A stretch of DNA of 64,000 nucleotides from an uncultured Chloroflexia bacterium (GCA_963713975.1 OY970218.1:1280001-1344000), one strand, 5' to 3'; counted from the stretch's first letter, positions 635 to 20,885 are shown. Numbers and translations are program-made. The notes: generated by a model from the sequence alone, not told the origin.

Positions 635-662
635 TTGACAATCAGACTTCTGCCCGGATAAT
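635..662 (+). promoter_or_regulatory. sigma70-type promoter of the tal-tdh-gap-pgk operon
   Basis: TTGACA (635-640), 16 bp spacer, GATAAT (657-662). Confidence 0.65.
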
Positions 663-795: not shown

Positions 796-1929
796 ATGGG
801 CGCAGGCGCGCTGACGAGAGCTCACGAGCTTGGTGTATCGGTCTCGCTCGACTACATCAGCCGCCGACTCCTTGCCGGGGGCGGCCTCCAGCGTCTGGTC
901 GACGAGGACCACGTGGTTGGCGTGACGTCCAATCCGATCATCTTCGGCAAGGCCATCAGCCAGGACCCGCTGTATGAGTCGCAACTTAGGCAGGTTGATC
1001 CCGATCTGGACGTGGAGCAGGTGGCGCTTGCGCTGATGATCCGCGACATCCAGGATGCCGCCGACATCCTGAGCCCTGTCTACAAAGCGACGGGTCACCG
1101 GGACGGATTTGTCAGTATCGAGGTGTCGCCCCACCTGGCGCACTCGTACGCGGGCACGGTCGCCGCGGCGAAGGCTCTCTGGGCTCGAGTAGATCGGCCT
1201 AATGTCCTCATCAAGATGCCGGCTACGGCCGAGGGGATCGCCGCCTTCGAGGATTGCGTCGCGGGCGGCATCGCCGTGAACATCACGGTCATCTTCTCCT
1301 CCGCGACGTACGAATCGGTTGTCAACGCCTACGTACGCGCCATGAACCTGCGCCACGAGGCCGGCCTCTCGCTCGATGTCGCAACCTACGCGTCCGTCTT
1401 CGTCGGCCGTCTCGATCCGCCGATCGACGCGCTCCTCGATGATCGGATCGCTGCCTCGACATCCCCGGACCAGCGCCGGAGACTCGAGTCCCTTCGCGGG
1501 CGGGGCGCCCTCGCCAACGCCGAGCTCGTGTACAAGCGGTCGGCGGAACTCCGGGCAGCCCTTGGGTCGGACCTCGCCGCGATTGGCGCTCGGTTCCAGC
1601 CGATCATCTGGGCGAGCGTCGGCGTCCGCGGCGACACGCCCCCCACCAAGTATGTGAATGGGCTCCTTGCGCTCGGCTCGACCCTCACGATGCCAGAGGC
1701 CACCTTGGATGCCTTCCGCGCCGATGGCGACACGAGCCGCCCGATGGGGACGAGCCTCGAGGAGTCGCGTGCGGTGTGGGCAGCCCTGACCGCAGAGGGA
1801 ATCAACCCTGATCGCATCACGCATGCCATGGAGGAGGAGATCCTGCGGCTCTTCTCCGAAGCGTATGACGGCATGTGTGCCGAGGTGGCATCGAAGCTCG
1901 CCCAGCTCCGCCCCGTCGCGGCGGGCTGA
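796..1929 (+). CDS. tal: Transaldolase family protein 1 (large actinobacterial type, divergent)
   Basis: GVTSNPIIF, VSIEVSP, Schiff-base Lys in NVLIKMPAT; GGAGG RBS before ATG 796. Confidence 0.85.
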   Translation: MGAGALTRAHELGVSVSLDYISRRLLAGGGLQRLVDEDHVVGVTSNPIIFGKAISQDPLYESQLRQVDPDLDVEQVALALMIRDIQDAADILSPVYKATGHRDGFVSIEVSPHLAHSYAGTVAAAKALWARVDRPNVLIKMPATAEGIAAFEDCVAGGIAVNITVIFSSATYESVVNAYVRAMNLRHEAGLSLDVATYASVFVGRLDPPIDALLDDRIAASTSPDQRRRLESLRGRGALANAELVYKRSAELRAALGSDLAAIGARFQPIIWASVGVRGDTPPTKYVNGLLALGSTLTMPEATLDAFRADGDTSRPMGTSLEESRAVWAALTAEGINPDRITHAMEEEILRLFSEAYDGMCAEVASKLAQLRPVAAG

Positions 1930-1983: not shown

Positions 1984-3060
1984 GTGAGCACGTATCGCAT
2001 CGCCGTTATTCCCGGCGACGGAGTCGGTGTCGAGGTGATCCCCGAGGGCCTCAAGGTGCTGAGGCGGGTCGGCGAGGTCACGGGCAGCTTCAGCATCGAG
2101 ACGACCGAGTTCCTATGGTCGTGCGAGTACTACCTCGCCCACGGCGAGATGATGCCGAAGGACGGCGTGGACCAGCTCCGCGACTCGGACGCGATCTACC
2201 TCGGCGCCGTCGGATTTCCGGGCGTCGCTGACCACGTCTCGCTGTGGGGCCTGCTCCTGCCGATCCGCAAGGAGTTCGACCAGTACGTCAACCTCCGGCC
2301 CATCCAGATGTTCGAAGGCATTCCCGGTCCGCTCCGAGACAAGGGCCCCAAGGACATCGACATCCTATGCGTACGGGAGAACACCGAAGGCGAGTACGTC
2401 GGGATGGGAGGCCGCTTTAAGGAGGGCACGCCCGACGAGTCGGCCGTCCAGGTATCGCTTTTCACCCGCAAGGGCGTGGAGCGGATCGCCCGCTACGCGT
2501 TCGGACTCGCCCAGAATCGTCGGAGGATCCTCGCGAGCGCGACGAAGTCCAACGCCCTCAACTACACGGCCGTGATGTGGGACGAGATCGTCGCCGAGAT
2601 CGGGGCCCGCGAGTTCCCTGAGGTGGAGATCACGAGTTACCACGTCGATGCGCTGTCGGCGCGGTTCGTGACGGCACCGGAAACGCTTGACGTGGTGGTT
2701 GCCAGCAACCTGTTCGGCGACATCATCACGGATCTCGGCGGGGCTCTCCAGGGGTCCATGGGGCTGCCCGCCGGCGCGAACCTCAATCCTGAGCGCAAGT
2801 ATCCCTCCATGTTCGAGCCGATCCACGGCTCCGCGCCGCGCCGCGCCGGCCAGGGGATCGGCAACCCGATGGCGACCGTCTGGGCCGGAGCGATGATGCT
2901 GGAGCACCTTGGCGAGACCGAGGCCGCGGGCCTCGTGATGGATGCACTCCGCCATGTCGCCCTGCACGGGCCGCGCACCAAGGATCTCGGCGGGACTACG
3001 CGGACAACCGAGATGGGTGACGCGATCGCCGCCGCGCTCGGCACCGCCGCCCCTCACTGA
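1984..3060 (+). CDS. Tartrate/D-malate dehydrogenase (beta-decarboxylating dehydrogenase family)
   Basis: IAVIPGDGVGVEV, DHVSLWGLL, VRENTEGEY, ATKSN, NLFGDIITD, FEPIHGSAP. Confidence 0.85.
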   Translation: MSTYRIAVIPGDGVGVEVIPEGLKVLRRVGEVTGSFSIETTEFLWSCEYYLAHGEMMPKDGVDQLRDSDAIYLGAVGFPGVADHVSLWGLLLPIRKEFDQYVNLRPIQMFEGIPGPLRDKGPKDIDILCVRENTEGEYVGMGGRFKEGTPDESAVQVSLFTRKGVERIARYAFGLAQNRRRILASATKSNALNYTAVMWDEIVAEIGAREFPEVEITSYHVDALSARFVTAPETLDVVVASNLFGDIITDLGGALQGSMGLPAGANLNPERKYPSMFEPIHGSAPRRAGQGIGNPMATVWAGAMMLEHLGETEAAGLVMDALRHVALHGPRTKDLGGTTRTTEMGDAIAAALGTAAPH

Positions 3061-3132: not shown

Positions 3133-4152
3133 ATGAGCAACCCGCGCGTTCTCGTTGTCGGCTACGGGGTCATTGGCCAGCGCCTCGCCGACGGTGTGGC
3201 CCGCCAGGCCGACATGGACCTCGTCGGCGTGGTCGACGTCGAGCCGACCCTGTCCACGCGCGCCCTCTTCGAGAGCGGCATGCCCTTCCGCCTGTTCGTC
3301 GCGGCATCCGAGCAGAAGGCGGCCTTCGACGCCATCGGGATACCGGTCGCCGGGACGCTCGATGAGGCGCTCGACGAGACGGACATCGTCCTTGACTCCA
3401 CGCCGGGCGGCGTCGGCCGCAAGAACAAGGAGATCTACCAGGCGCGTGGCGTCAAGGCGATCTTCCAGGGCGGCGAGAAGAGCGACATCGTCGACGTCTT
3501 CTTCCACGGCTACGCCAACTACGAGAAGGGCGTCGGCAAGGACTACCTCAAGCTCACGAGCTGCAACACGACGGGTCTCATCCGGGCGGTTGACTGCCTC
3601 GACCGGGCCGTCGGCGTGGAGCGGGTCATGGTGACGATCATCCGTCGGGTGGCCGATCCGGGCGACACCCATCGCGGGCTCGTGGACGTGGCCCAGGTGG
3701 AGCCGGTGCCGAACCACCAGGCCGTGGACCTCATGACGATCATGCCCCACGTGGAGGCTACCGGGCTACTGGTGCACGTCCCCACGACGCACGGCCACAT
3801 TGTGAACGTGATCGCAACGCTCAAGAACCCGCTCGACAAGGCGGGGGCGATCGAGCTGTTCAACGCCCATCCGCGGATCCGCGTCGTCAAGATCGTCGAC
3901 GGGTTCAACTCCAACACCGCCCTCTTCCGCTACGCGCGCGACTTGGGCCACAAGCGCGCCGACATGTACGAGATCGCGGTGTTCGACGAGACCGTGGCGG
4001 TGAGCGGGCGCGAACTGATGTTCGCGATCAACATCCCGCAGGAGGCCGTCGTCACGCCCGAGACGATGGACGCCATCCGTGCCGCGCTGGAGATGCAGAC
4101 CGACCGCCTCGAGGCCGTCGGTCTGACGAACCAGTACCTCGGCATGAAGTAG
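3133..4152 (+). CDS. Archaeal-type (class II) glyceraldehyde-3-phosphate dehydrogenase homologue
   Basis: GYGVIGQRLADGV..Q.DM, IFQGGEK, catalytic SCNTTGL, RRxADP, QEAVVTPETMDAIRA, all class II signatures. Confidence 0.88.
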   Translation: MSNPRVLVVGYGVIGQRLADGVARQADMDLVGVVDVEPTLSTRALFESGMPFRLFVAASEQKAAFDAIGIPVAGTLDEALDETDIVLDSTPGGVGRKNKEIYQARGVKAIFQGGEKSDIVDVFFHGYANYEKGVGKDYLKLTSCNTTGLIRAVDCLDRAVGVERVMVTIIRRVADPGDTHRGLVDVAQVEPVPNHQAVDLMTIMPHVEATGLLVHVPTTHGHIVNVIATLKNPLDKAGAIELFNAHPRIRVVKIVDGFNSNTALFRYARDLGHKRADMYEIAVFDETVAVSGRELMFAINIPQEAVVTPETMDAIRAALEMQTDRLEAVGLTNQYLGMK

Positions 4153-4165
4153 CGGAGCCGGCTTC

Positions 4166-5422
4166 GTGCGGTACGGCATCAGGACGCTCGACGACGTGGA
4201 GGTGCCCGGCAGGACCGTCCTGTGCCGGGTTGACATCAACTCGCCTCTCGACCCGACGACGGGCGGCCTGGCGGACACGACACGCATTCGTGCGTGCGTG
4301 CCCACCGTCCGCGAGTTGTCCGACGCCGGCGCGCGGGTCGTGCTCCTCGCTCACCAGGGCGGAGACCTCGAGTACGAGAACTACGCGTCCACCGAGCCAC
4401 ACGCGGCAATTCTATCGTCGCTCCTCGAGCGGCCGGTCGCGTTCGTCGACGACGTGTGCGGACCCGCAGCCCGCGCCGCGATCGCGGGGCTGGCGGACGG
4501 CGATGTCCTGCTGCTGGACAACGTCCGCTTCGTCGCCGAGGAGATGACGATCTTCGAGACGAAGCTCAACCTTACGCCCGCGCAACAAGCCAAGACGCTG
4601 GTTGTGCGCAAGCTCGCGCCGCTTGCTGACCTGTACGTGTGTGACGCCTTCGCGGCCGTCCATCGCTCCCAGCCATCGCTCGTGGGCTTCGAAGAGGTGC
4701 TGCCCTCGGCGATGGGCCGGCTCTTCGAACTCGAGTACGCATCCCTGAGTCACCTGCGCGAGGATCCGGCCCGCCCCTTCGTCTTCGTGCTGGGCGGGAC
4801 CAAGGTGGACGACGCCTTCCTGATGATGCGCTCGGTGCTCGACGACGGGATCGCCGACATGGTGCTCACCGGCGGGCTCGTGGGCCAGATCATGCTGATC
4901 GCCGCTGGCGTGGACCTGGGTCGGCCGTCCACGGACTTCATCCGGGCCCGCAAGCTCTGGGGCTGGGTCGAGGAGTCGCGCGGGCTGCTCGAGCGCCACG
5001 GCACGAAGATCCTGATGCCCGCGGACGTGGCGTCTGTCCCCAGCGGGGTTCGCCGCGAGGTCGATGTCGGCAACCTCCCGATCGACGAGGTGATCCTCGA
5101 CATCGGGCACAACACGGCCGCGACCTACGCCGAGGCGATCTCGCGCGCGGGGACCGTCTTCGTGAACGGCCCGGTCGGCGTCTTCGAGCAGCCCGAGACC
5201 GCGGCAGGGACGCGCGCGGTTTGGGAGGCCATGGCCGCCGCGCCAGGCCACACGGCTCTCGGGGGAGGGGACAGCATCGCAGCGATGAACCGGTTCGGGC
5301 TTTCCGACCGCTTCGACTACGTATGTACCGCGGGGGGCGGGATGGTGCGCTTCCTGAGTGGCGAGGAGCTCCCGGTGGTAGCAGCGCTCAAGGCCGCTGC
5401 CGGCAGGCCCGCAAGGTCGTGA
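4166..5422 (+). CDS. pgk: Archaeal-type phosphoglycerate kinase homologue
   Basis: RVDINSPLDP, DAFAAVHRSQPSLVGF, VLGGTKVDD, NGPVGVFE, GGGDS, TAGGG. Confidence 0.88.
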   Translation: MRYGIRTLDDVEVPGRTVLCRVDINSPLDPTTGGLADTTRIRACVPTVRELSDAGARVVLLAHQGGDLEYENYASTEPHAAILSSLLERPVAFVDDVCGPAARAAIAGLADGDVLLLDNVRFVAEEMTIFETKLNLTPAQQAKTLVVRKLAPLADLYVCDAFAAVHRSQPSLVGFEEVLPSAMGRLFELEYASLSHLREDPARPFVFVLGGTKVDDAFLMMRSVLDDGIADMVLTGGLVGQIMLIAAGVDLGRPSTDFIRARKLWGWVEESRGLLERHGTKILMPADVASVPSGVRREVDVGNLPIDEVILDIGHNTAATYAEAISRAGTVFVNGPVGVFEQPETAAGTRAVWEAMAAAPGHTALGGGDSIAAMNRFGLSDRFDYVCTAGGGMVRFLSGEELPVVAALKAAAGRPARS

Positions 5423-5467: not shown

Positions 5468-5530
5468 GATGTTTGACATCGGGCGAAAGATGTGCTATCG
5501 TCCACATTCAGGTGTTAGATTTGCACACAA
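5468..5530 (+). promoter_or_regulatory. sigma70 promoter with an overlapping palindromic operator
   Basis: TTGACA 5473-5478, 17 bp, extended -10 TGcTATCGT (5496-5501); GATGT-TTG-ACATC palindrome over the -35. Confidence 0.7.
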
Positions 5531-5671
5531 GTCGTATCTTGAGCGACGCCATGAGGCCTCGAACGAGCCGCTCCGACATCACCGGCCAGGGGGCGGCCCG
5601 GGAGACCGATTCAATGCCGGGTGGCAGGTCCAGCGCAACCTCGAATGTGGTCTCCTTCCTGGAGCCGTGAT

Positions 5672-6403
5672 GTGAGCCAACTCGAAACCCTCTCCGGCCT
5701 TGTCCGCGGCGCAACCGTCGTCGACCTGGCCCCGACGATCGAGAACGGGATGCCGCTGTGGCCGACGCATCCGCCCCTCGTGGTCCATGCGACGCGGACG
5801 CACGAGCGGGACGGCTACTTCTGCCAGACCGTGTTCATGGCCGAGCACACCGGCGCTCACATCGACGTGCCTTCGCACATCCACCCCTCGATGATGGACC
5901 ACACCGTGGACGTGATCCCGGTGGACACCCTCGTGGCCCCGGCCAGTGTCTTCGACCTCAAGCCGCTGGCGCTCCAGCCGGGCGATCTCGTTGATGCATC
6001 CGAACTCGCGCGGGTCGATGCCGCCAATCCAGCCCCGCTCGGTGGGGGCGACATCGCGCTGCTCGACTACGGCTGGCAGCCGCGCTTCAAGGTAGGAGCG
6101 GGCTGGCGGGAGTTCTCTGAGAACTCGCCCGGCCTGACCGAGGATGCGGTGCTCTGGCTCAAAGACCGCGGTGTCCGGGCCGTCGGCGCCGACACGGTCG
6201 CGTGCGACCAGCCGATCAAGGACGGGAAGGTCACGCAGAAGTCGTACGGCCACGACGACCACTGGCTCCCCAACGGGATCTTCATCCTGGAGAACCTGGT
6301 CAACCTCGACAAGCTCCCCGGTCGCGTCTACTTCATCGCACTGCCCCTCAAGATCAAGGGTGGCTCGGGTTCGCCCCTGCGACCGATCGCCCTGGTCCTG
6401 TGA
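5672..6403 (+). CDS. Cyclase family (kynurenine formamidase-like) metal-dependent hydrolase
   Basis: HTGAHIDVPSH motif, ILENL, LPLKIKGGSGSPLR; start reassigned to GTG 5672 behind GGAG. Confidence 0.85.
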   Translation: MSQLETLSGLVRGATVVDLAPTIENGMPLWPTHPPLVVHATRTHERDGYFCQTVFMAEHTGAHIDVPSHIHPSMMDHTVDVIPVDTLVAPASVFDLKPLALQPGDLVDASELARVDAANPAPLGGGDIALLDYGWQPRFKVGAGWREFSENSPGLTEDAVLWLKDRGVRAVGADTVACDQPIKDGKVTQKSYGHDDHWLPNGIFILENLVNLDKLPGRVYFIALPLKIKGGSGSPLRPIALVL

Positions 6404-6488: not shown

Positions 6489-7505
6489 GTGAAAGCACTC
6501 CGGTTCCACGGCCCAAACGACCTCCGCCTAGAGGAACTTCCGCTCCCGGTGCCGGGTCCCGGCGAGGTCCGGATCCGACCTGCGGCCGTCGGCATCTGCG
6601 GAACGGACGTGCACATCCTGGACGGCACGTTCGCGTCGCGCCCGCCGATGACCCTGGGCCACGAGGTTGCGGGCTTCGTCGACGCCGTTGGCGTAGGTGT
6701 CCGCAACACCCGTGAGGGCGACCTCATCACCGTCGAGCCGCACCGCTATTGCGGCGTCTGCCGCTACTGCCGGCTGGGTCGTGAGCACCTGTGCCTGAAC
6801 AAGGAAGCGTACGGCGTCCACCTCGACGGCGGCATGGCCGAATGCCAGGTGATCCCGGAGCGCATCGCCTATCGCCTGCCTGACGGCATGGATCCGAAAG
6901 TCGGCGCACTGGCCGAGCCCCTCTCGTGCGTCGTGCATGCGATGGATCGTCTCCATGCCACCTCGGGGACGTCTGTGGTCATCTTCGGGGCCGGACCGGC
7001 GGGGCTCATTCTCGTGACGCTCTGTCGCCTCGCTGGTCTCGTGCCGATCGTGGTCGTCGAGCCAGACGCGGCTCGGCGCGCCGCAGCCATCGCCTTCGGA
7101 GCACATGGCACGGTTGATCCGAGTACTGACAGCTGGGTGGAGGACGCCCAGAGCCTCGTTGGCGGGGCGGGCTTCGACTCAGTGATCGAGGCCGTTGGAT
7201 CACCGCGAGTCCTGGAGTCCGCGATCCCCCTCGCTGCGCGCGGCGGGACCGTCCTGGTCTTCGGCGTGGCGAACCCCGATGCCACCGCGGTGATCAAGCC
7301 ACAGGAGGTGTTCGCGAAGGAGCTGACCATTCTGGGGACCGTCATCAACCCGTACACCCATCACCGCGCCGTAGAGCTGCTTCCCGGGCTGGGGCTTGAC
7401 CGATTAGGGATCAGGTCGTTCCCGCTGGACGCGCACGCCGAGGCGTTCGAGGCGCATCACAAGCGAGTCGCCGGCAAGGTGCAGTTCGCGCCCCAGGGCT
7501 CGTAA
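6489..7505 (+). CDS. Zn-dependent alcohol/polyol dehydrogenase (MDR, sorbitol DH-like)
   Basis: GICGTD, GHE, CxxCxxCx7C, GAGPAG; start GTG 6489. Confidence 0.88.
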   Translation: MKALRFHGPNDLRLEELPLPVPGPGEVRIRPAAVGICGTDVHILDGTFASRPPMTLGHEVAGFVDAVGVGVRNTREGDLITVEPHRYCGVCRYCRLGREHLCLNKEAYGVHLDGGMAECQVIPERIAYRLPDGMDPKVGALAEPLSCVVHAMDRLHATSGTSVVIFGAGPAGLILVTLCRLAGLVPIVVVEPDAARRAAAIAFGAHGTVDPSTDSWVEDAQSLVGGAGFDSVIEAVGSPRVLESAIPLAARGGTVLVFGVANPDATAVIKPQEVFAKELTILGTVINPYTHHRAVELLPGLGLDRLGIRSFPLDAHAEAFEAHHKRVAGKVQFAPQGS

Positions 7506-7558
7506 GGCCGCGGGCTACCCCGCTGGACAACCCAAGTCTGCGAACAATGGAGGAGATC

Positions 7559-8560
7559 ATGACGTTCATCCAGAGCCGGACACGGGTCATCGGACTCGTG
7601 GCGGCCAGTGCCATTCTGCTGTCGGCCTGCGGCAGTGCCGCGTCCAGCCCGGCAGCCTCCGCCGCCCCGGCATCGGCGGCCGCGAAGGCCTTCAACGTCG
7701 GCATCGTCGCGTTCGACAGCACCTCGCCGATCGACGCGATCTTCGCGAACAGCACCAAGGCCAAGCTCGAGGCGCTTGGCAACACGACGCTGATGCAGGA
7801 TCCGAAGGGCGATCCGGGCCAGGCCAACACGATCTGCACCCAGTACGTCACCGCCAAGGTCGACGCGATCATCGTGACCGTCTTTGCGCAGGACCAGATG
7901 GCCCAGTGCAATGCCGGGGCCAAGGAAGCCGGTATCCCGGTGTTCTACCTCGGCACGCCGCTTCTCGACGGCATGGCGGGCGCCGTGTCGTTCGTGTCCG
8001 CAAAGCCGGTCAACGACGTCTTCATCAAGTACGTCGTCGACAATAAGGTCACCGACATCCTCGCCCTCGACTACTCGCCGGGCACTCCGTGCCGCCTCCG
8101 GGCGGAGTACCGCACCGAGCTCCTCGCTGCGCAGGCACCGGACGTCAAGGTCAGCAAGCACGAGTTCCCGATCCCGGGCCAGACCGTCGACGCGCAGAAC
8201 GCGACGGCGGCGTGGCTGGCCGCACACCCCGAAGGCGCTGGCAAGTACGCCATCTGGGCCTGCTTCGCCGACCCGACCGCAGGAGCCGGCGCGGCACTGA
8301 ATCAGGTCGGCCGGACAGACGTGCCGATCTTCACCTGGGACTTCAACAAGACGATCATGCCCGCCATCCAGTCGGGCCAGATCGCTGCTGACGCTTACCT
8401 CAACGCGACCGAGGTCGGTAACACGGGCGCCCAGATGGTCCAGGACTACCTGAACGGCGACAAGACCCCCAAGGGCGTGGACGCGCCGACCGTCATCCTC
8501 GACAAGACCAATGTCGACCAGTTCGTCAAGGATCATCCCGAGGCCCTCGGGACCGAGTAG
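7559..8560 (+). CDS. Sugar ABC transporter substrate-binding lipoprotein (RbsB-like)
   Basis: Lipobox LSAC, Ala-rich linker, periplasmic binding protein type 1 pattern. Confidence 0.85.
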   Translation: MTFIQSRTRVIGLVAASAILLSACGSAASSPAASAAPASAAAKAFNVGIVAFDSTSPIDAIFANSTKAKLEALGNTTLMQDPKGDPGQANTICTQYVTAKVDAIIVTVFAQDQMAQCNAGAKEAGIPVFYLGTPLLDGMAGAVSFVSAKPVNDVFIKYVVDNKVTDILALDYSPGTPCRLRAEYRTELLAAQAPDVKVSKHEFPIPGQTVDAQNATAAWLAAHPEGAGKYAIWACFADPTAGAGAALNQVGRTDVPIFTWDFNKTIMPAIQSGQIAADAYLNATEVGNTGAQMVQDYLNGDKTPKGVDAPTVILDKTNVDQFVKDHPEALGTE

Positions 8561-8675
8561 CCCGTTCACTCGCCTCTGGTGAGACACTCGGCCCGGTCGG
8601 CGTGAGCCGGCCGGGTCGAGCCCTCAGTCGACCCCCCACATCGTCGGCAGGTAGTGGCTGAAGCAGAGGACAACC

Positions 8676-10253
8676 GTGGATCTGACCGCAACCGCCACAG
8701 GACAGCCCGCCGCGTCATCAGTCGCTTCCGTCCCGACCCTGATCGAGGCGCGTGACATCTGTCGATCATTCGGCGCGCTGAAGGCGCTGACGGACGTCTC
8801 CTTGACCTTCGCGCGTGGGGAGGTTCATGGCCTCGTCGGTCCCAACGGGGCTGGCAAGTCGACCTTCCTCAACATCGTCGGTGGAATCATCGAGCCGACG
8901 AGTGGCACGATCCTCGTCGACGGCGCCGCAACGGAGATACGAGGCCCGGCAGCCGCGACCGCGCTCGGATTCTCCTTCATCCCTCAGGAACTGTCGCTCG
9001 TTCCTGCCTTCTCGGCGATCGACAACATCACGCTCGGCCTTCGGTCGGTCTCGAAGGCCGGCTTCGTCGACAGAGCGAGTCGTGACCGCATCGCCCGTCG
9101 TGCCGCTGAGCGCGTGGGGATCACCTTCGACCTCCGCAGGCCTGTCCGCGACTTGAGTCCCGCCGAGCGCGGCCTCGTTGCGATCGGGCACGCGCTTGCG
9201 CACGACATGCGCTTCATCTCGATGGACGAGCCCACAGCGTCCTTGTCCGACGTCGAATGCCAGCGGCTCTTCCAGGTTGTCCGGGAGCTTGCTCGCGACG
9301 GCGTGACGGTCGCCTATGTCAGTCATCGCCTCGCGGAAATCGAGGAACTGTGCGATCGCGTCACCGTGTTCCGCGATGGTCGCGTGGTCGGCCGCTTCGA
9401 CCGCGGTGCCTACACACGCGCCGATCTCCTGAAAGGCATCACGGGCAATGAGGCCGGACTGCAGCAGCTCGAGTCGTCGATGCCCGCCGTTGCGGCAACG
9501 AGCCAGGTGCTGTTCTCCGCCGACAAGCTCTCGGACGGCAAGCGCGTCAAGGACGTCTCCTTCGACTGCCGGGCAGGCGAGATCGTCGGGCTCGGCGGCC
9601 TTGTGGGGTCCGGGCGGACCGAAGTGCTCAAGCTCGTCTTCGGGGAAGTGAAGCTGGCGGCCGGGTCGATGACACTCGAGGGGCACGAGCACAGGCCCCA
9701 GAGTGTCGAGGCCGCCGTCGACGCAGGGATCGCTCTCGTTCCTGAGGAGCGCCGATCACAGGGGCTCCTCATGGAGGACTCCATTGCCAACAACATGACG
9801 CTCGGCAACTGGGGCTCGATGCGCTCGCGTCCGCCCTTGCCCATCATCTCGGAGGGTCGGCCGCGCAATGTCGCACGCCACATGATCGAGACGCTCAGCA
9901 TCAAGACCAAGGGAGTCGACGAGCCGGTGCGTCGGCTGTCGGGCGGCAACCAGCAGAAGGTGGTCTTCGGCCGCTGGCTCTCACGCAACTCCCGGCTCCT
10001 CCTCCTCGATGAGCCGACCCGTGGTGTCGATGTTGGGGCCAGACAGCAGATCTGGGCAACCGTCGAGAAGCTGGCGGCAGATGGCAAGGGCGTCGTGGTG
10101 GTGAGTTCTGAACTCAGCGAGCTCGCCCTCTGCCATCGCGTCTTCGTGATGGTTGAAGGCCGAACGGTGGCCGAACTCCAGGGCCCCGGCGTCACCGAGG
10201 AGCAGGTCCTCGCCGTGACCTATCGCAACCTGCAGCAGCAAGAGGCCGAGTAA
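8676..10253 (+). CDS. Sugar ABC transporter ATP-binding protein (RbsA-like, two NBDs)
   Basis: GPNGAGKST, DEPTASL, LSGGNQQKV, LDEPTRGVDVG. Confidence 0.92.
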   Translation: MDLTATATGQPAASSVASVPTLIEARDICRSFGALKALTDVSLTFARGEVHGLVGPNGAGKSTFLNIVGGIIEPTSGTILVDGAATEIRGPAAATALGFSFIPQELSLVPAFSAIDNITLGLRSVSKAGFVDRASRDRIARRAAERVGITFDLRRPVRDLSPAERGLVAIGHALAHDMRFISMDEPTASLSDVECQRLFQVVRELARDGVTVAYVSHRLAEIEELCDRVTVFRDGRVVGRFDRGAYTRADLLKGITGNEAGLQQLESSMPAVAATSQVLFSADKLSDGKRVKDVSFDCRAGEIVGLGGLVGSGRTEVLKLVFGEVKLAAGSMTLEGHEHRPQSVEAAVDAGIALVPEERRSQGLLMEDSIANNMTLGNWGSMRSRPPLPIISEGRPRNVARHMIETLSIKTKGVDEPVRRLSGGNQQKVVFGRWLSRNSRLLLLDEPTRGVDVGARQQIWATVEKLAADGKGVVVVSSELSELALCHRVFVMVEGRTVAELQGPGVTEEQVLAVTYRNLQQQEAE

Positions 10254-11260
10254 TGCAGTCCGCAGCGCCGAGCAACCCGGCCCGGGAGGAGTCCACGCCG
10301 AGGACGCTGACCCGAACCGTGACGGTCATCGTCGGCAAGTACGGCTCGTTGATCGTCCTCGGGCTCCTCTTCACATACTTCTCCCTCACGGCCAACTACT
10401 TCCTGACCTGGGGCAACTTCGTCCAGATCTTCAACCAGGCCGCCCTCACCGCCATCATCGCCTGCGGTCTCACGATGGTCCTTGCGGCCGGCCAATTCGA
10501 CCTGAGCATCGGCAACAACGCCAGCATGTGCGGGATCGTCGTGTCGGTCTTGATGATCAACGGCTTCCCGATCCCGGTGGCGATCGCGGTGGCGATCGTC
10601 GTGGGCATCGCGATTGGCCTGTGCAATGCGTTCCTCGTGACGAAGATCGGCGTGAACGCCCTCGTCGCGACGCTCGGCGTCGGGAGCGCCGTCGTCGGCA
10701 TCAACTACTTCATTTCCGGCGGCTCAGCACAGCCCTTCGGGTCCGTGGCCCCCGAGTACTCAATGATCTCGGTTGGCAACTGGCTCAGCGTGCCCCGCAA
10801 CGTGTACTACATGGCGGGCGTCGCGATCGTCCTTTGGATTGTCCTCAACCGCACGGTCCTCGGCCGGAACATCCAGGCGGTCGGCGGCAATGCCGAGGCG
10901 GCACGCCTCGCGGGTGTCAACGTCAACCGCGTCACCAGTGCGTCATTCGTTCTCGCTGGCATCTGTGCGTCGATCACCGGGATCCTGCTTGCCGCCGTTG
11001 TGGGAAGCGGTCAGCCGGTGGGGGGTGACGGGTTCACGCTGCAGGCGTTCGCTGCCGCCTTCCTCGGCACGGCCGTGATGAAGGAGGGACAGTTCCACAT
11101 CATCGGCACGATCGTCGGTGTCCTAACGGTGACGGTCGGGTTCAATGGCCTCGCCCTGACGGGCGTGCCCTCGTACTTCCAGTTCTTCTTCCAGGGCGTC
11201 CTTCTCATTGCCGCCGTCTCGTTCAGCACGCTTGCCCAGAAGCGCTCGAAGGCGAGCTGA
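10253..11260 (+). CDS. Sugar ABC transporter permease (RbsC-like)
   Basis: FDLSIG, GRNIQAVGGNAEAARLAG (EAA loop), many TM helices. Confidence 0.92.
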   Translation: MQSAAPSNPAREESTPRTLTRTVTVIVGKYGSLIVLGLLFTYFSLTANYFLTWGNFVQIFNQAALTAIIACGLTMVLAAGQFDLSIGNNASMCGIVVSVLMINGFPIPVAIAVAIVVGIAIGLCNAFLVTKIGVNALVATLGVGSAVVGINYFISGGSAQPFGSVAPEYSMISVGNWLSVPRNVYYMAGVAIVLWIVLNRTVLGRNIQAVGGNAEAARLAGVNVNRVTSASFVLAGICASITGILLAAVVGSGQPVGGDGFTLQAFAAAFLGTAVMKEGQFHIIGTIVGVLTVTVGFNGLALTGVPSYFQFFFQGVLLIAAVSFSTLAQKRSKAS

Positions 11261-11290: not shown

Positions 11291-12265
11291 ATGACCGACG
11301 CGCCGCGCCCGACGACGATTGCCGAGCTGTTCGGACCGAATCCACCGTCGAACTGGGGGAAGTGGGGCCCTGACGATGAGGTCGGGAGTCTCAACTACCT
11401 GGATGCTGCCCAGGTCGTCCGGGGCGTCGGCGCCGTCCACACCGGCGAGGTCTTCACCCTCCAGGTGCAGATCGGGTCGGAGCGCTCCGCGACCGATCCT
11501 GTCTGGCCAAACCGCACATCGGCTGTGCGCACCCCGGTCATGGACGAGGGCTACTTCCAGCGGGGCGAGGTCCCTGAGCCGCGTGGTGGCCACCACTACG
11601 CAGACGACAGGATCGACATGTTCCTCCAGGGATCGACGCAGTACGACGCGCTCGGCCACCTCTGGTACGACGGCAAGATCTGGAACGGCTACGACGCCGC
11701 GACAACCATCGGAAGCCTCAAGAAGGCATCGGTGCTGCCGCTCGCGGAGCGCGGCATCGTCGGGCGCGGGATCCTGATCGACGTCGCCCGCCATCGCGGG
11801 AAGCGATGGCTGGATCGAGCCGAGCCGTTCACGCACCTGGACCTCCTTGACGCCGCCCGCGCCCAGGGCTGCGAGATCGAGAAGCGCGACATCCTCCTCG
11901 TGCGAACCGGCTGGATGGGACGGTTCTACGAGGTGTCGGCGAGCGAGTTCTACGAGGACTGGAACGAGCCGGGCCTCGCCTACAGCCGGGAGCTCGTGGA
12001 GTGGTTCCAGGCCATGGAGATCCCGAACCTCGTGACCGACACGGTCGCCAATGAGCAGAGCTTCGATCCCGAGACGGGCATCGAGATGCGTCTGCACTGC
12101 GCGTTGATGCGGAACCTCGGCATCGCGATGACCGAGGTCTGCTGGCTCGATGATCTCGCCGAAGCGTGTGCCCGGGACGGGCGGTGGACGTTCCTTTACA
12201 CCGCGGCGCCCCTCAAGGTCGTCGGGGCGAGCGGCTCGCCCGTGAACCCCGTCGTGATCCGGTGA
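11291..12265 (+). CDS. Cyclase family hydrolase, long type
   Basis: NWGKWGPDDEVGSLN, QGSTQYDALGH, APLKVVGASGSPVNP. Confidence 0.85.
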   Translation: MTDAPRPTTIAELFGPNPPSNWGKWGPDDEVGSLNYLDAAQVVRGVGAVHTGEVFTLQVQIGSERSATDPVWPNRTSAVRTPVMDEGYFQRGEVPEPRGGHHYADDRIDMFLQGSTQYDALGHLWYDGKIWNGYDAATTIGSLKKASVLPLAERGIVGRGILIDVARHRGKRWLDRAEPFTHLDLLDAARAQGCEIEKRDILLVRTGWMGRFYEVSASEFYEDWNEPGLAYSRELVEWFQAMEIPNLVTDTVANEQSFDPETGIEMRLHCALMRNLGIAMTEVCWLDDLAEACARDGRWTFLYTAAPLKVVGASGSPVNPVVIR

Positions 12266-12302: not shown

Positions 12303-13412
12303 ATGAGCGTCCCCCGGAGGCGAGTCCTGGTGCTCGGCGCGACCGGTGGTGTGGGCCAGGAGGCCACGGACCGGTTCCTCCGCGACGAGGCATTCGACGT
12401 CGTCGCCGTGTCGCGTCGGCGCCCCGAGGTGCAGGGGCGCGAGGGCTACGCGCACGCGAGCGTGGATCTCCGCGACGGCGACGCCGTCCGGACCGCGATC
12501 CGCGACGCCGGTCCCATCAGCCACGTCGTCTACGCCGCCCTGTTCGAGAAGGATGACCTCATCGCGGGCTGGGTTGATGAGGAGCAGATCGGCACCAACC
12601 GGCTGATGTTCGCCAACGTCCTCGACGCCCTCATCGCCTCTAGGCAACCGGTACGGCACTTCTCGATCCTGCAGGGCACGAAGGCATACGGCTACCACCT
12701 CGGACGGATGCGGATCCCCGGGAAGGAGTCGCAGCCGCGGGTCGACCACGGCAACTTCTACTGGGCGCAGGAGGACCTCCTGGTGGCGGCGGCGCGCTCG
12801 ATGGGCGCAGCCTTCACGATCTTCCGTCCCCAGTTCATATTCAGCGGTGCCCTCGGGGCGGCCATGAACCTGGTTCCCGCCATCGGCATCTACGGCGCCC
12901 TGTGCCGGGAGCTCGGGCGGCCGTTCTCGTTTACCGGCGGGGCGTCGTACGTCGCCGAGGCCGTCGACGCCCGGCTGCTCGCGAACGCGCTCCACTGGGC
13001 AGCCGACGCCACCGCCGCGGTCGATCAGACCTTCAATATCACCAACGGCGACGTGTTCGAGTGGCGCGACCTCTGGCCGTCGTTCGCCCGGGCCCTCGAC
13101 GTGGAGCCGGGTCCCGACCAGCCGATGTCGCTCGCGACCTGGCTGCCCCAACAGGATGCCGCTTGGGGTCGCATCGTCGATCGCCATGGACTCCGCCCGC
13201 TCGCCCTGATGCAGATCCTCGGGCTCGGGCACCACTATGCGGACGATGCCTTCGCCTTCACTGCAGACGGCTCGCCCCTCGAGAGTCGATCGCGTCCGGT
13301 CCTCCTGAGCACCGTCAAGCTACGCCAAGCCGGCTTCGGGGAATGCGTCGACACCGAGCAGATGTTCGCGAGCTGGTTCGCGCACTTCAAGACGGAGCGC
13401 GTCCTCCCCTGA
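12303..13412 (+). CDS. SDR of the PRISE (progesterone 5-beta-reductase/iridoid synthase-like) type
   Basis: GATGGVG, LQGTKAYG, NFYWAQED, FNITNGDVFEWRDLW. Confidence 0.75.
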   Translation: MSVPRRRVLVLGATGGVGQEATDRFLRDEAFDVVAVSRRRPEVQGREGYAHASVDLRDGDAVRTAIRDAGPISHVVYAALFEKDDLIAGWVDEEQIGTNRLMFANVLDALIASRQPVRHFSILQGTKAYGYHLGRMRIPGKESQPRVDHGNFYWAQEDLLVAAARSMGAAFTIFRPQFIFSGALGAAMNLVPAIGIYGALCRELGRPFSFTGGASYVAEAVDARLLANALHWAADATAAVDQTFNITNGDVFEWRDLWPSFARALDVEPGPDQPMSLATWLPQQDAAWGRIVDRHGLRPLALMQILGLGHHYADDAFAFTADGSPLESRSRPVLLSTVKLRQAGFGECVDTEQMFASWFAHFKTERVLP

Positions 13413-13501: not shown

Positions 13502-14632
13502 ATGTCTGAGAGCCTGCTGCGAGACCTCGCGGCCCTCGGCGTCGCCGTCAGCTACGACAACATCGGCCGGGACCTGATTCTCTCGGGGCGGCTCGCGCGC
13601 CTGATCCGTGAGGACGGCATCGCGGGCGAGACTGCGAACCCGATCATCTACGAGAAGGCTGTCTCGACGACCAGCGCCTACGACGCCGAGATCGCCGAGC
13701 TCGCCCTCGCCGGGCTGACGCCCGAGCAGATCGTGATGGAGCTATGGGCGCACGACGTCCAGATGGCGTGCGACGTCTTCCGGCCGGTCTGGGAGTCGAC
13801 CGACCACATCGACGGATACGTCAGCCTGGAGCTCCCGCCGCACCTCGCGCATGACGCCCACGGGACCATCGAGGCGGCCCGCACGGTCCGCCGAAGGGTC
13901 GACCGCCCCAACCTGGCCCTCAAGATCCCGTCCACCCCGGAGTCGTTTGTCGCCATCGAGGAGTGCGTCGTCGAGGGCGTGAACGTGAACGCAACCGTGA
14001 TCTTCTCGCTCGAGACCTATGAGCAGGTGATCCAGGCGTACCGCCGCGGTCTGGAGCGCCGCCATGCCGCCGGTCTATCGCTCGATCTCCAGTCGTTCGC
14101 GTCGGTGTTCCTCAGCCGCTACGACGCCCCGGTGGACGCCCTGCTCGTCGAGCGCATTCGTGCGTCGTCCAATCCCGCCGAGATCGCTCAGCTCAAGAGC
14201 GTGATGGGCGAGGTCAGCCTCGCGAACGCATGGATGGTCGTGCGCCGGTTCCGGGCGTTCTTCGACGGCCCGGAGTTTGCGACTTTGCGGGTCGCGGGGG
14301 CGCGCGTCCAGCGACCCTTGTGGGCCGGCGTCGTCGCCCGCAACAGCCGCTATGGCGACGTGAAGTACATGGAGGGCGTCGCGATCCCCGGCACCGCCAT
14401 CACGGCGTCGGATGCGCCGGTCGATGGCGTCCGCATGCATGGTGTCCCGCTGGCGGCAGAGGACGACGGGTCGGCTGACGTCGTGTTCGCGACCTGCGAG
14501 GTGCTCGGCATCGATATCGCTCGAATCGCCCTCGACATGGAGCAGGCGGTCGTCACGGCCTTCGTCACGGCCTTCGACGAGCTCGTCGAAGGCGTTGCCC
14601 GCAAGGCCGCCCAGACGCCAGCCGGGGTGTAG
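13502..14632 (+). CDS. Transaldolase family protein 2 (more divergent)
   Basis: ETANPIIYEKA, GYVSLEL, NLALKIPST; AAGGAG RBS before ATG 13502. Confidence 0.8.
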   Translation: MSESLLRDLAALGVAVSYDNIGRDLILSGRLARLIREDGIAGETANPIIYEKAVSTTSAYDAEIAELALAGLTPEQIVMELWAHDVQMACDVFRPVWESTDHIDGYVSLELPPHLAHDAHGTIEAARTVRRRVDRPNLALKIPSTPESFVAIEECVVEGVNVNATVIFSLETYEQVIQAYRRGLERRHAAGLSLDLQSFASVFLSRYDAPVDALLVERIRASSNPAEIAQLKSVMGEVSLANAWMVVRRFRAFFDGPEFATLRVAGARVQRPLWAGVVARNSRYGDVKYMEGVAIPGTAITASDAPVDGVRMHGVPLAAEDDGSADVVFATCEVLGIDIARIALDMEQAVVTAFVTAFDELVEGVARKAAQTPAGV

Positions 14633-14694: not shown

Positions 14695-15522
14695 TCAGCC
14701 CACCACGTTGGAAGCATCCGCCAGCTCGTCCGGGTCGACCTGCGCGACCACAACGCGCACACCCTCGGCTTCCACGTCGGCCCGCTGCCGCTCGGTGATG
14801 CCGTCGTCCACGACAAGGATGTCGACGGCCGCGAGGGGCACGACGTTCGACATCGCGGTCGTCTCGAACTTCGACGAATTGGCGAGCAGGATGACCTCGT
14901 CCGCGATCCGGACGAGCTCGCGCTTGGTCTCTGCGTCCCAGGCGTTGCCGCACCACAGGGCACCGCGCCCGATGGCCGTTGCGGCGAGAAAGACCTGGTT
15001 GACACGCAAGTTGGACAGCGCGGTGAGCGTCGCGGGACCCGCGAATCCTTGGGACTCCGAGTGGAGGACGCCACCGAGGCCCACGACCTCCACCCCGGGC
15101 TTGTCGCGCAGAATGGCCATCACCGGCAGAGAGGGCGTGACGACCGACAGCCGCAGGGACGGGCCAAGCCGCGTCGCGAGCTCGACGCCCGTCGTGCCGT
15201 TGTCGATGGCGATGGAGGAATTGCTAGCGATGAGTGTCAGAGCGGCCCCGGCGATCGCCGCCTTGGCATCATGCCGCAGTGTGGAGCGGAGGCGGAAGTC
15301 CGTGCCGAAGGTGAGGCCGGCGTTGGGGGTCACCCCGCCGTGAACTGCCCGAACGAGCCCCTGATCCGCCAGCAGCCGGATGTCCCGGCGAATGGTCATC
15401 TCCGAGACGCCGAGCGATTCAGCCAGCTCGCTCGCGCCAAGGAAGCTCGATCCGCCCACCATGTCGACGATGCGGCGCCGACGGGCGGGTGCTGATCCAT
15501 ATCGGAGGCTATCGACGTCCAT
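14695..15522 (-). CDS. DeoR/GlpR family transcriptional regulator
   Basis: LAESLGVSEMTIRRDI HTH, IDNGTT, NSSKF. Confidence 0.92.
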   Translation of the reverse strand: MDVDSLRYGSAPARRRRIVDMVGGSSFLGASELAESLGVSEMTIRRDIRLLADQGLVRAVHGGVTPNAGLTFGTDFRLRSTLRHDAKAAIAGAALTLIASNSSIAIDNGTTGVELATRLGPSLRLSVVTPSLPVMAILRDKPGVEVVGLGGVLHSESQGFAGPATLTALSNLRVNQVFLAATAIGRGALWCGNAWDAETKRELVRIADEVILLANSSKFETTAMSNVVPLAAVDILVVDDGITERQRADVEAEGVRVVVAQVDPDELADASNVVG

Positions 15523-17564: not shown

Positions 17565-17772
17565 GACTGGTGCCGACAGGCGCGCCGGGCATCGCTTGAC
17601 CCGCACCCGGTCGGCCTGCGCCACCCGCCCGACCGACGGCGCAGGCGTATCCTCGATTCAGTAGCGACCGCCGCACCGGCACCTGTGCTCCGTGACCGCG
17701 GATGCCGTACCACCGGCGGTGCCTTCCATCGGGGATTGCTGCTCCCTGAGGCTGATTTGGAGGCAACCTCGC

Positions 17773-18825
17773 ATGGCCAGGGTGACGATCATCGGTGCCG
17801 GCATGATGGGCACCGCGATGTGCTGGCCGTCCGCCGACCGTGACCATGAGGTTCGCCTTGTCGGGACCCCGCTCGACGAGGACGCGATCCGCAGCATCCG
17901 CGAGACCCGCGTCCATCCCAATCTCGAACGCGAGGTCCCGGCGGGTGTGCGGGTCTATCCCGTCGCTCAGCTCGCCTCTGCCATCGACGGCGCCGACCTC
18001 ATCATCAACGGTGTCAGCAGCTTCGGGGTCGACTGGTTCGCCGAGGCGGTCGGACCGTACCTGCGACCGGACGTGCCCGTCCTCTCGGTGACGAAGGGCC
18101 TCGAGGGCGACGAGGACGGTACTCTCGTCACGCTTCCGGTGGCCCTCGATCGCAAGCTGCCGCCCGAGCAGCGCGGCTCCATCCGGTTCAACGCCATCGG
18201 CGGCCCCTGCATCGCGCACGAGCTGGCTGCTCGACGCCACACAGCCGTCGTCTTCACGGGCTCCGATGAGGCGACGCTTGCGACGCTTCGCGACATGCTC
18301 TCGACCTCCTACTACCACGTGTGGGTCTCGACCGATGTAACCGGCATCGAGGTGTGCGCCGCGATGAAGAACGCCTATGCGCTCGGGGTGGCCCTCGCCG
18401 TCGGACAGATGGAGGCGATGGGCCCGGACGGGCTCGCGAACGGGTACAACCCGCAAGCGGCGTTGGTGGCGCAGAGCTGCTTCGAGATGCGCCGACTGAT
18501 CGAGGTGCTTGGCGGCGACCCCGGCCAGGTGAGCTGGCTGCCGGGTGCCGGCGACCTGTACGTCACGGTCTTCGGCGGTCGCACGGTCCGCCTTGGCAAG
18601 ATGCTCGGCAAGGGGATGCCGTTCGCCAAGGCCCGCGAGGTGCTAGCCGGCGTCACGCTCGAGAGCGTGGAGATCACGACGCGTGTCGTGCGGGCATTGC
18701 CCAAGCTCGAGGAGCGTGGCACGGTGAAGGCGTCCGACTTCCCGTTGCTCCTCCATCTCGACCGGGTCCTGAACCACGCGGACCCCGTCGATATCCCCTG
18801 GGACGCCTTCTTTCCGTCGCGCTAA
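17773..18825 (+). CDS. NAD(P)H-dependent glycerol-3-phosphate dehydrogenase-like protein (divergent GpsA family)
   Basis: GAGMMG, VTKG, GGPCIAHE, AMKNAYAL, GDLYVTVFGGRT; GGAGG RBS. Confidence 0.75.
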   Translation: MARVTIIGAGMMGTAMCWPSADRDHEVRLVGTPLDEDAIRSIRETRVHPNLEREVPAGVRVYPVAQLASAIDGADLIINGVSSFGVDWFAEAVGPYLRPDVPVLSVTKGLEGDEDGTLVTLPVALDRKLPPEQRGSIRFNAIGGPCIAHELAARRHTAVVFTGSDEATLATLRDMLSTSYYHVWVSTDVTGIEVCAAMKNAYALGVALAVGQMEAMGPDGLANGYNPQAALVAQSCFEMRRLIEVLGGDPGQVSWLPGAGDLYVTVFGGRTVRLGKMLGKGMPFAKAREVLAGVTLESVEITTRVVRALPKLEERGTVKASDFPLLLHLDRVLNHADPVDIPWDAFFPSR

Positions 18826-18866
18826 CTCGGCGGCTCCCAAACACGTGTTGCACCTGCATCCGCTAG

Positions 18867-20592: not shown

Positions 20593-20885
20593 GATCGACC
20601 TTCGTTCGTGCTCAGAAATGCCCGTTTCGAGGCACGTGCCGGCCGGGCTCGGGGATTTGCCCCAACCAGCTTGACGCTCGAGCCGCAGGACGCCAGAGCC
20701 GAACGAGGCGTCCGCCCCGCGCCTTCGCGTGAGCCGTCAGTGTGGACGTGTAGTCAATCACCCCCAGGACGTCGATCCGCTCGAACAGGTGTGGGGTCAG
20801 GAACCTCGATTCGCGCTCGGATCGACATCGCGCAAACGATCGGCCGCCCGTTGCCCTGCCTGGTCGGCTGCTCTATGCTTGACTC

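Follow-up and report, generated by a model that had tools for sequence, protein, structure and literature searches.

The first 14.6 kb of a 64,000-nucleotide stretch of the genome of an uncultured Chloroflexia bacterium (GCA_963713975.1, OY970218.1:1280001-1344000; the whole stretch is hereafter the window, with positions counted from its first nucleotide) carries twelve co-directional genes on the plus strand, two of which encode an archaeal-type (type II) glyceraldehyde-3-phosphate dehydrogenase (GAPDH) and a phosphoglycerate kinase (PGK), designated here GAP2 and PGK2. Because the genome (3.62 Mb, 70.8% GC) also holds a housekeeping class I gap gene (C1:522560-522862) and a canonical pgk (C1:520670-521809, 517.7 bits) approximately 760 kb away, the pair is accessory, and the best explanation of the findings below is that it constitutes a catabolic module for substrate-level phosphorylation, and not a set of glycolytic isoenzymes. 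The pair, and the gene directly upstream of GAP2, are as follows:

1984-3060, plus strand: TTC/DmlA-type beta-decarboxylating D-malate/tartrate dehydrogenase (TIGR02089, 516.3 and 514.8 bits, cut-off 470.4)
3133-4152, plus strand: GAP2, a type II (archaeal-type) phosphorylating aldehyde dehydrogenase of the bacterial GAP2 clade (339 aa, ATG start)
4166-5422, plus strand: PGK2, a PGK-family acyl-phosphate kinase without the basic-patch Arg65 (418 aa, GTG start)

Both reading frames of the pair are open and lie on the same strand, with a 14-bp spacer between the GAP2 stop and the PGK2 start, the Shine-Dalgarno sequence GAAGGAG 7 nt upstream of the GAP2 ATG, and GGAG upstream of the PGK2 GTG. An initial annotation of this DNA had proposed an archaeal-type GAPDH-PGK pair in a bacterium, and that identification holds, as profile scores exceed their cut-offs and housekeeping counterparts are encoded elsewhere; the motifs that it quoted, whose positions are given below, were all confirmed together with their coordinates.

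GAP2 scores well above the curated cut-offs for type II GAPDHs (NF003251, 390.4 bits against 185; TIGR01546, 309.3 bits against 232.9). Its AlphaFold model (predicted local distance difference test score, pLDDT, 94.9) matches the archaeal enzymes of M. fervidus (1CF2), P. horikoshii (2CZC), M. jannaschii (2YYY) and S. solfataricus (1B7G) over the full length, with TM-scores of 0.94-0.96, root-mean-square deviations of 1.3-1.7 Å and 35-39% identity, whereas class I GAPDHs reach 0.70 at most; of the structural comparison proposed in the initial annotation, the match of fold is thereby borne out. The S-C-N-T-T nucleophile motif, the catalytic His and an Arg-Arg pair are common to GAP2 and these archaeal enzymes, from which it differs in an Asp (Asp35) in place of the NADP-type Lys, in the replacement of His194 by Gln196, and in being an accessory copy in bacterial catabolic operons. 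The motifs SCNTTGL (aa 143; nt 3559-3579) and FQGGEK (aa 111) are intact; in alignment, the cofactor loop reads VDVEP (aa 34-38) in GAP2 against TKTKP in P. horikoshii and SKTRP in M. fervidus, and the substrate motif reads PNHQAVDL (NHQAVD, nt 3712-3729) against PSHHGPDV in both. According to the pertinent passages of a 2025 review (PMC12041015), Cys140 of M. fervidus GAPDH is the nucleophile and His219 the base, while the anion site comprises Ser139, Asn141, Arg167, His193 and His194, and the phosphate of glyceraldehyde-3-phosphate (GAP) is held by Arg167 and Arg168. GAP2 retains S143, C144, N145, R171, R172, H195 and H222, and of the M. fervidus site residues only His194 is changed (to Gln196).

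These features were followed across 67 members of the bacterial clade and 65 other type II representatives that possess the catalytic Cys, a comparison from which five full-length representatives (clade members or Cys-less offshoots), and others without the Cys motif, were left out. The S-C-N motif, His222 and Arg171/Arg172 are invariant in the clade (67/67). The second anion-site His is likewise Gln196 in all 67 members, against His in 58 and Gln in five of the 65 others; Asp35 is present in 67/67 clade members against 12/65, and His220 in 67/67 against 10/65. Single changes are therefore not unique to the clade, but their combination is fixed within it, which partly answers whether such substitutions are common among other type II GAPDHs: they occur there, in a minority. 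In all, 36 positions are clade-specific, with 90% conservation or more among its members and rare occurrence outside it (F123, H125, G126, Y127, T142, H215, H246, N261, P302 and Y335 among them), and several are new histidines. The invariant Asp35 fits an NAD-type and not an NADP pattern, as might be expected of a catabolic dehydrogenase, in agreement with the cofactor preference initially predicted from the loop. As read from its sequence, the substrate site appears conservatively changed and not rebuilt; with the Cys, the His and both arginines kept, its earlier description as remodelled was overstated.

PGK2 also spans its family profile completely (PF00162, positions 1-379 of 379; 357.4 bits, cut-off 27). 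It resembles PGKs over its full length (P. horikoshii 2CUN is the closest solved structure at 288 bits; Bacillus 1PHP scores 227 bits), with the nucleotide-domain motifs kept, and bears DINSP at aa 23 and HRSQPSLVGF at aa 166; it is unlike them in the deletion of one residue and the lack of a basic residue at position 65, in a segment that reads HQGGD (HQGG, nt 4352-4363) against HQGKP in P. horikoshii PGK and HLGRP in Bacillus PGK. As laid out in the sections of a review that deal with substrate binding (PMC7729029), the 3-phosphate is bound in PGK by Arg65, Arg122 and Arg170, Asp23 and Asn25 interact with the 2-hydroxyl and His62 with the bridging oxygen, and Arg65 combines its phosphate contact with a salt bridge formed on closure. 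We aligned the 65 of 72 cluster members of at least 380 aa, together with the window copy (n = 66), and took residue numbers from alignment with the bacterium's own PGK and 1php. The equivalents of Asp23, Asn25, Arg38, His62, Arg122 and Arg170 are each kept in 66/66 sequences, whereas position 65 is a gap in all 66, with no Arg or Lys within five residues after His62; the clade reads H-Q-G-[G/D/S]-[D/T] throughout (66/66), and Asp follows right after the Gly in 34/66. The loss of the basic-patch Arg, first noticed in the window copy, is thus a property of the whole set, with the qualification that the archaeal comparison at this position is with P. horikoshii only, which has Lys there. The retained residues imply that a 2-hydroxy acyl phosphate with a distal anion would still be bound, and the less basic anion site fits a smaller, singly charged group. 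Both GAP2 and PGK2 look catalytically competent.

The genes that accompany the pair elsewhere bear on its product. We surveyed the best 80 of at least 566 GAP2 relatives found in genome contigs (55 of the 80 loci are at least 12 kb long), clustering all open reading frames (ORFs) of these loci and annotating the recurrent clusters. PGK2 lies directly downstream of GAP2 in 72/80 loci, and the other eight end less than 600 bp past GAP2. A LarA homologue occurs in 35/80 loci; among the 31 that were scanned, after two over-long and two truncated ORFs were dropped, 29 match the Ni-dependent malate racemase family NF052593 (E ≤ 1e-100, best 1.5e-180), and 11 match lactate racemase. Malic enzyme is encoded in 9/80 loci, and a TTC homologue stands beside GAP2 in 10/80, these ten and the window copy (11 sequences) matching TIGR02089 at E ≤ 1e-130. 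In all, 47/80 loci have at least one of racemase, malic enzyme and TTC; among the 55 loci of 12 kb or more, 39 do. Other recurrent neighbours are a split transketolase (18/80 loci), clusters of IolB and IolD with IolE-like and IolG-type genes and the split transketolase (6/80), a class III aminotransferase (19/80), often with an MttB-family methyltransferase (13/80), an acetoin-dehydrogenase-like E1alpha/E1beta/E2/E3 complex (9/80) and a tungsten-type aldehyde:ferredoxin oxidoreductase (5/80). In the window itself TTC exceeds its family cut-off, as does the match in only one of 14 control genomes, and no malate racemase was found in the window or the genome (best match 19.9 bits). Collectively, the conserved neighbours point to malate or a related C4 dicarboxylate as the product, and not to sulfolactaldehyde.

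These observations bear on the most conventional interpretation, namely that GAP2 and PGK2 are NAD-linked GAPDH and PGK isoenzymes of catabolic operons, which raise lower-glycolytic flux where transketolase or transaldolase steps free GAP. Genes for one or other of these enzymes do often adjoin the pair, GAP2 passes the curated type II cut-offs with its Cys, its His and both phosphate-binding arginines in place, six of the seven tracked residues persist in PGK2, and the PGK of P. horikoshii also lacks Arg65, with Lys instead. We nevertheless judge this interpretation unlikely, given that canonical enzymes are already present in every genome checked, that no basic residue occupies position 65 in 66/66 PGK2 sequences (Asp following in 34/66), and that it leaves the aminotransferase and MttB contexts (19 and 13 of 80 loci), and those with racemase, malic enzyme or TTC (47/80), unaccounted for. 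Five genomes whose loci have no malate-related neighbour (four of the Stercoripulliclostridium type, and Christensenella hongkongensis) encode a canonical second PGK in 5/5 cases and a class I GAPDH in 4/5, from which it follows that the pair is accessory there too.

We consider it about an even chance (probability near 0.5) that GAP2 and PGK2 oxidise (R)-malic semialdehyde by way of D-malyl phosphate to D-malate, with the gain of one ATP, and that D-malate is then converted to pyruvate. We infer the substrate, the product, the direction and the whole upstream pathway from sequence. GAP2 would use NAD+ and phosphate to oxidise a 2-hydroxy aldehyde with a distal carboxylate, most likely (R)-malic semialdehyde (3-hydroxy-4-oxobutanoate), which is GAP with CH2-COO- in place of CH2-OPO3; a thioester on Cys144 would be resolved to the acyl phosphate, D-malyl phosphate, from which PGK2 would transfer the phosphoryl group to ADP, yielding D-malate and ATP. 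The TTC/DmlA-type enzyme (1984-3060) would then convert D-malate to pyruvate, CO2 and NADH. The stereochemistry is coherent, since an aldehyde with the GAP-like (R) configuration gives, by the Cahn-Ingold-Prelog rules, (R)-malate, which is D-malate, the substrate of DmlA/TTC and of malate racemase. As to the source of the aldehyde, Iol enzymes make 5-dehydro-2-deoxygluconate, and removal of its C2 ketol unit by transketolase would leave OHC-CHOH-CH2-COO-, that is, malic semialdehyde; transamination of 4-amino-3-hydroxybutyrate would also give it. In the window the source is presumably an imported, oxidised sugar or sugar acid, and candidates for releasing the aldehyde are the ABC importer, zinc-dependent alcohol dehydrogenase, short-chain dehydrogenase/reductase (SDR) and two hydrolases listed below, with one of the two transaldolases, TAL1 or TAL2. 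The acetoin-dehydrogenase-like complex and the tungsten-type oxidoreductase would represent other routes that make or remove the aldehyde. Loci with one or other of these enzymes are L024, L027, L030, L043, L055, L065 and L069, and also L048, L068 and L077.

Several points weigh against this assignment. In the full-text literature searched, with subscription journals and supplements outside its scope, we found no assay of any GAP2-clade enzyme, no description of malic semialdehyde as the substrate of a bacterial type II GAPDH/PGK pair, and no transketolase route from 5-dehydro-2-deoxygluconate. Both arginines of the phosphate site are kept in GAP2, so that GAP is by sequence a possible substrate, and the neighbouring transketolases and transaldolases themselves make or use GAP. 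Gln196 and Asp35 are each shared by a minority of the other type II representatives (5/65 and 12/65), and the clade-specific residues of GAP2 were placed by sequence alignment. Among the 80 loci, 22 have neither malate-handling nor aldehyde-making neighbours, including nine of the 55 that are at least 12 kb long, and in Stercoripulliclostridium-type loci the pair lies among unrelated genes. The scheme does not account for TAL1 and TAL2: as transaldolase frees the part of a ketose from C4 onward, release of malic or tartaric semialdehyde needs a C7 keto acid; for malic semialdehyde this is a seven-carbon 2-deoxy keto acid, for which there is no candidate, and a six-carbon keto-uronate would instead give tartronate semialdehyde. 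Finally, the TTC family also acts on tartrate, which makes conversion of tartaric semialdehyde to tartrate a live alternative.

In that alternative, tartaric semialdehyde (2,3-dihydroxy-4-oxobutanoate) would be oxidised to tartrate with formation of ATP, and TTC would be a true tartrate dehydrogenase/decarboxylase. The window copy of TTC does exceed the cut-off of a family that NCBI names tartrate dehydrogenase, its neighbours in the window are of a sugar-acid type, and cleavage of 5-keto-gluconate by transketolase gives tartaric semialdehyde. Acceptance of tartrate by DmlA-type enzymes is also mentioned in the portion of the Acinetobacter baumannii work that concerns DmlA (PMC11353897). The racemase neighbours, however, fit malate racemase families (29/31), the IolE/IolD/IolB contexts would lead through a 2-deoxy keto acid to malic and not tartaric semialdehyde, and a C7 precursor is needed here too if transaldolase is used; on balance, we find the tartrate route distinctly improbable.

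Two transaldolases in one operon also recall sulfoglycolysis. The sulfo-transaldolase pathway frees sulfolactaldehyde, a transaldolase there, as proposed here, releasing a non-phosphorylated C3/C4 acid aldehyde that resembles GAP; to our knowledge, sulfolactaldehyde is oxidised or reduced in that pathway without an acyl phosphate step. The initial annotation viewed the pair as an ATP-yielding oxidation module for a GAP analogue, and named sulfolactaldehyde, glyceraldehyde and erythrose-4-phosphate as substrates to be compared. The first part of that proposal is the best fit to the conserved neighbours, which lend no support to any of the three named substrates: malate racemase, malic enzyme and D-malate/tartrate dehydrogenase point elsewhere. 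An anion site is kept in both GAP2 and PGK2, which favours the idea, but the annotated neighbour clusters of the 80 loci contain no genes for sulfoquinovose, sulfolactate or sulfite metabolism, and none of these substrates would account for the neighbouring genes for malate racemase, malic enzyme and TTC. A Pfam search of 20 ORFs at 1-25.5 kb of the window, to which the search was confined within the genome, found no sulfoquinovosidase, sulfoquinovose isomerase, sulfolactate lyase or dehydrogenase, or sulfite exporter. Uncharged substrates are, moreover, a mismatch to the retained Arg122 and Arg170 of PGK2 and Arg171 and Arg172 of GAP2. It is accordingly very unlikely that the substrate is sulfolactaldehyde, or another GAP analogue without a carboxylate (glyceraldehyde, lactaldehyde or erythrose-4-phosphate). 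A scheme in which oxidation of erythrose-4-phosphate is followed by a PdxA-like step of TTC was considered separately and rejected, as it leaves the malate-racemase contexts unexplained and TTC-type enzymes need an alpha-carboxylate.

The direction of the pathway must also be weighed, because both reactions are reversible in the parent families. PGK2 could in principle use ATP to activate D-malate, and GAP2 could then make malic semialdehyde for biosynthesis, much as aspartate kinase and aspartate-semialdehyde dehydrogenase act on aspartate; neighbouring aminotransferases could aminate the resulting aldehyde. We regard this as highly improbable, seeing that the neighbours are importers and catabolic dehydrogenases, that the cofactor loop is of the NAD type, and that TTC, malic enzyme and racemase link malate to pyruvate, which fits a catabolic flow.

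More speculatively, lower glycolysis may have a 'carboxylate-for-phosphate' shadow, with the oxidation of malic semialdehyde by the GAP2-PGK2 pair at its core, and the operon in the window would be a transaldolase-dependent version of it that is new to observation; this we put forward tentatively, as an extension that is more probably wrong than right. In such a scheme 5-dehydro-2-deoxygluconate would mimic xylulose-5-phosphate, malic semialdehyde GAP, D-malyl phosphate 1,3-bisphosphoglycerate, and D-malate 3-phosphoglycerate, and the substrate of TAL1 or TAL2 would be a carboxylate sugar acid rather than a sugar phosphate, cleavage of which would free the acid aldehyde. The transaldolase-dependent version implies a new keto-acid intermediate and a new transaldolase specificity. 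If correct, this extension would mean one extra ATP from inositol- and carnitine-type substrates in many phyla.

The chemistry proposed for GAP2 and PGK2 has well-known counterparts. Aspartate kinase with aspartate-semialdehyde dehydrogenase, ProB with ProA, and ArgB with ArgC each couple a carboxylate kinase to a GAPDH-superfamily semialdehyde dehydrogenase that is phosphorylating and depends on a Cys, and so follow the same logic. Those pairs are reductive and biosynthetic, with kinases of the amino acid kinase fold, whereas the GAP2-PGK2 pair has a kinase of the PGK fold and is proposed to be oxidative. The proposed intermediates and the type of the last enzyme are matched in the aerobic L-carnitine pathway of A. 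baumannii (CntAB, malic semialdehyde dehydrogenase, DmlA-type enzyme), where malic semialdehyde has been shown by experiment to pass via D-malate to pyruvate, the last step by a DmlA-type enzyme, according to those parts of the report that describe the route (PMC11353897). The same parts of PMC11353897 indicate a non-phosphorylating aldehyde dehydrogenase, no gain of ATP and a different source of the aldehyde, whereas here the GAPDH/PGK pair would conserve ATP.

Should the malic semialdehyde assignment prove true, two textbook glycolytic families would have a widespread, unannotated sister function that provides a new ATP-forming step from a C4 acid aldehyde; the energy yields assumed for anaerobic and soil bacteria that grow on inositols, sugar acids or carnitine-type amines would need revision, and the labels 'type II GAPDH' and 'PGK' would be wrong in hundreds of genomes. 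Candidate specificity determinants are the missing Arg65 of PGK2 and, in GAP2, Gln196 with the new histidines, and a PGK-fold malate kinase could find use in synthetic pathways that run through malyl phosphate.

The clade is a widespread gene pair for which no biochemical description was found in the literature searched. The relatives of GAP2 in genome contigs, at least 566 in number, are 62-96% identical to it. Among the matches listed by a word-indexed search, 120 have 68-100% identity and derive from Bacillota (Moorella, Pelotomaculum and Desulfitobacteriaceae), Chloroflexota and many metagenomes, while an exhaustive search of 50%-identity representatives returned two full-length relatives at 67% and 62% identity (498 and 463 bits), the next being at most 41% identical (at most 256 bits). 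The best 80 loci come from Thermoleophilia, Actinomycetes, Acidimicrobiia, Bacillota, Chloroflexota, Atribacterota, Aminicenantes, Planctomycetota, Spirochaetota and Kiritimatiellia, and from one gammaproteobacterial and one Saprospiraceae metagenome-assembled genome (MAG); the relatives closest to the window copy are from Thermoleophilia and Actinomycetota MAGs, the nearest (L009) being 85% identical. A quick tree, midpoint-rooted and with SH-aLRT values as its only support, recovers the clade at SH-aLRT 99 with a stem of 0.82 and does not resolve its sister group. Both archaea (Hodarchaeota, Aenigmarchaeota) and bacteria (Caldinitratiruptor, Dehalococcoidia) are found in other type II lineages. 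'Archaeal-type' is therefore a fair label for the family, whereas direct inter-domain transfer, as first suggested for the pair, is not supported; membership in a large bacterial clade makes a bacterium the most likely proximate donor. Three 50%-identity representatives (P0129, P0134 and P0146) group with the GAP2 clade in the quick tree and have lost the SCNTT motif, one of them reading PQPSLVGM at its position; they may be a non-catalytic or re-purposed offshoot. A 566-aa metagenomic protein (P0050), 83% identical to GAP2 and containing both PF02800 and PF00162, represents a GAP2-PGK2 fusion, or else two genes merged in gene calling.

The remainder of the cluster around the pair and TTC consists of the following features:

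635-662, plus strand: sigma-70-like promoter match (TTGACA-16-GATAAT, 11/12; consensus match only), ahead of the TAL1-TTC-GAP2-PGK2 unit
796-1929, plus strand: TAL1, divergent transaldolase (PF00923, 197 bits; likely start ATG 796, with GGAGG upstream)
5473-5501, plus strand: second promoter-like site (TTGACA-17-TATCGT, with TG; consensus match only), in the 199-bp gap after PGK2
5621-6403, plus strand: cyclase-family (PF04199) metal hydrolase 1 (99 bits)
6489-7505, plus strand: zinc-dependent alcohol/polyol dehydrogenase (likely GTG start at 6489; all NCBIfam matches under their cut-offs)
7547-11260, plus strand: CUT2-type sugar ABC importer (binding protein 7547-8560, ATPase 8676-10253, permease 10253-11260)
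11291-12265, plus strand: cyclase-family hydrolase 2 (Pfam match; ortholog in genome G131)
12303-13412, plus strand: extended SDR of the progesterone-5-beta-reductase/iridoid-synthase (enone reductase) type (2v6f, 106.8 bits)
13502-14632, plus strand: TAL2, second divergent transaldolase (41% identical to TAL1)
14695-15522, minus strand: divergent DeoR/GlpR-family regulator at the cluster end (profile match)

The promoter-like matches, each to the consensus only, suggest two transcription units; the scan returned three consensus sites in 16 kb, against 1.2 expected from shuffled sequence. The longest TAL1 frame begins at TTG 628, and as the promoter match at 635-662 falls inside it we favour the later ATG 796, on which transaldolase alignment and the GGAGG sequence agree. 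TAL1 aligns to the C. glutamicum transaldolase 3r5e and scores 336.5 bits for NF002881, under the cut-off of 367. TAL1 and TAL2 are each about 37% identical to the housekeeping transaldolase, have a 9-residue insertion in common, and keep the catalytic Lys and the phosphate-site Arg. A sample of 400 other genomes of the phylum yielded no TAL1 ortholog at E ≤ 1e-90; transaldolases of the same genus are only about 37% identical to TAL1, and a metagenome scan gave one partial match, at 49%. In G131, the ortholog of hydrolase 2 (46% identity) has as neighbours a sugar ABC system, a dehydratase of the enolase superfamily and a dehydrogenase of the GFO/IDH/MocA type, and the contexts of its orthologs (G131 and G068) suggest sugar-acid metabolism, with no substrate named. 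Taken together, the importer, alcohol dehydrogenase, SDR and two hydrolases suggest an imported sugar that would be oxidised, delactonised or hydrolysed, and partly deoxygenated.

A search of 24 same-genus and 16 same-order genomes found GAP2 in none of them, and the 15-kb operon region has a GC content of 66.7-67.5%, against a genome mean of 70.8% (standard deviation of 5-kb windows, 1.6). A serine recombinase gene abuts a tRNA-Arg gene at 24.9 kb. The rarity of the pair in the genus, the low GC content and the recombinase at tRNA-Arg are consistent with arrival on an island, and suggest that the catabolic genes came on an integrated element of this kind. No repeat of the tRNA-Arg region of at least 14 bp was found to the left that might mark the left border, and in a synteny comparison over 30 same-genus genomes the two flanks match different contigs, the left flank being largely multi-copy sequence. 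Within that flank (C1:1276000-1276614), two segments, of roughly 446 and 120 bp, are found many times in each genome across the genus at 70-92% identity, and represent either a gene family or an element present in multiple copies. At its right end (20729-25484), the low-GC stretch carries a small mobile or defence-like block:

20729-21538: PIN-domain protein
21848-23068: AAA/STAND-type ATPase
23408-24943: serine recombinase, abutting tRNA-Arg(CCG)
24555-25484: ORF with a FitA-like RHH domain
24879-24954, minus strand: tRNA-Arg(CCG)

Between the DeoR/GlpR-family regulator and this block lies a second sugar operon (15648-20396), whose products each score under curated cut-offs: a fused PfkB kinase/tagatose-bisphosphate-aldolase-like protein (638 aa), an NAD(P) dehydrogenase resembling GpsA and an FGGY kinase resembling XylB. 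Far from the window, the genome contains two IolD-containing inositol loci (C1:774142-776686 and C1:3481956-3492792), with short FSA/TalC-like transaldolase-family matches nearby (776168-776686 and 3491198-3491743); IolB is encoded at C1:3492031-3492792, and a split transketolase at C1:193522-195284.

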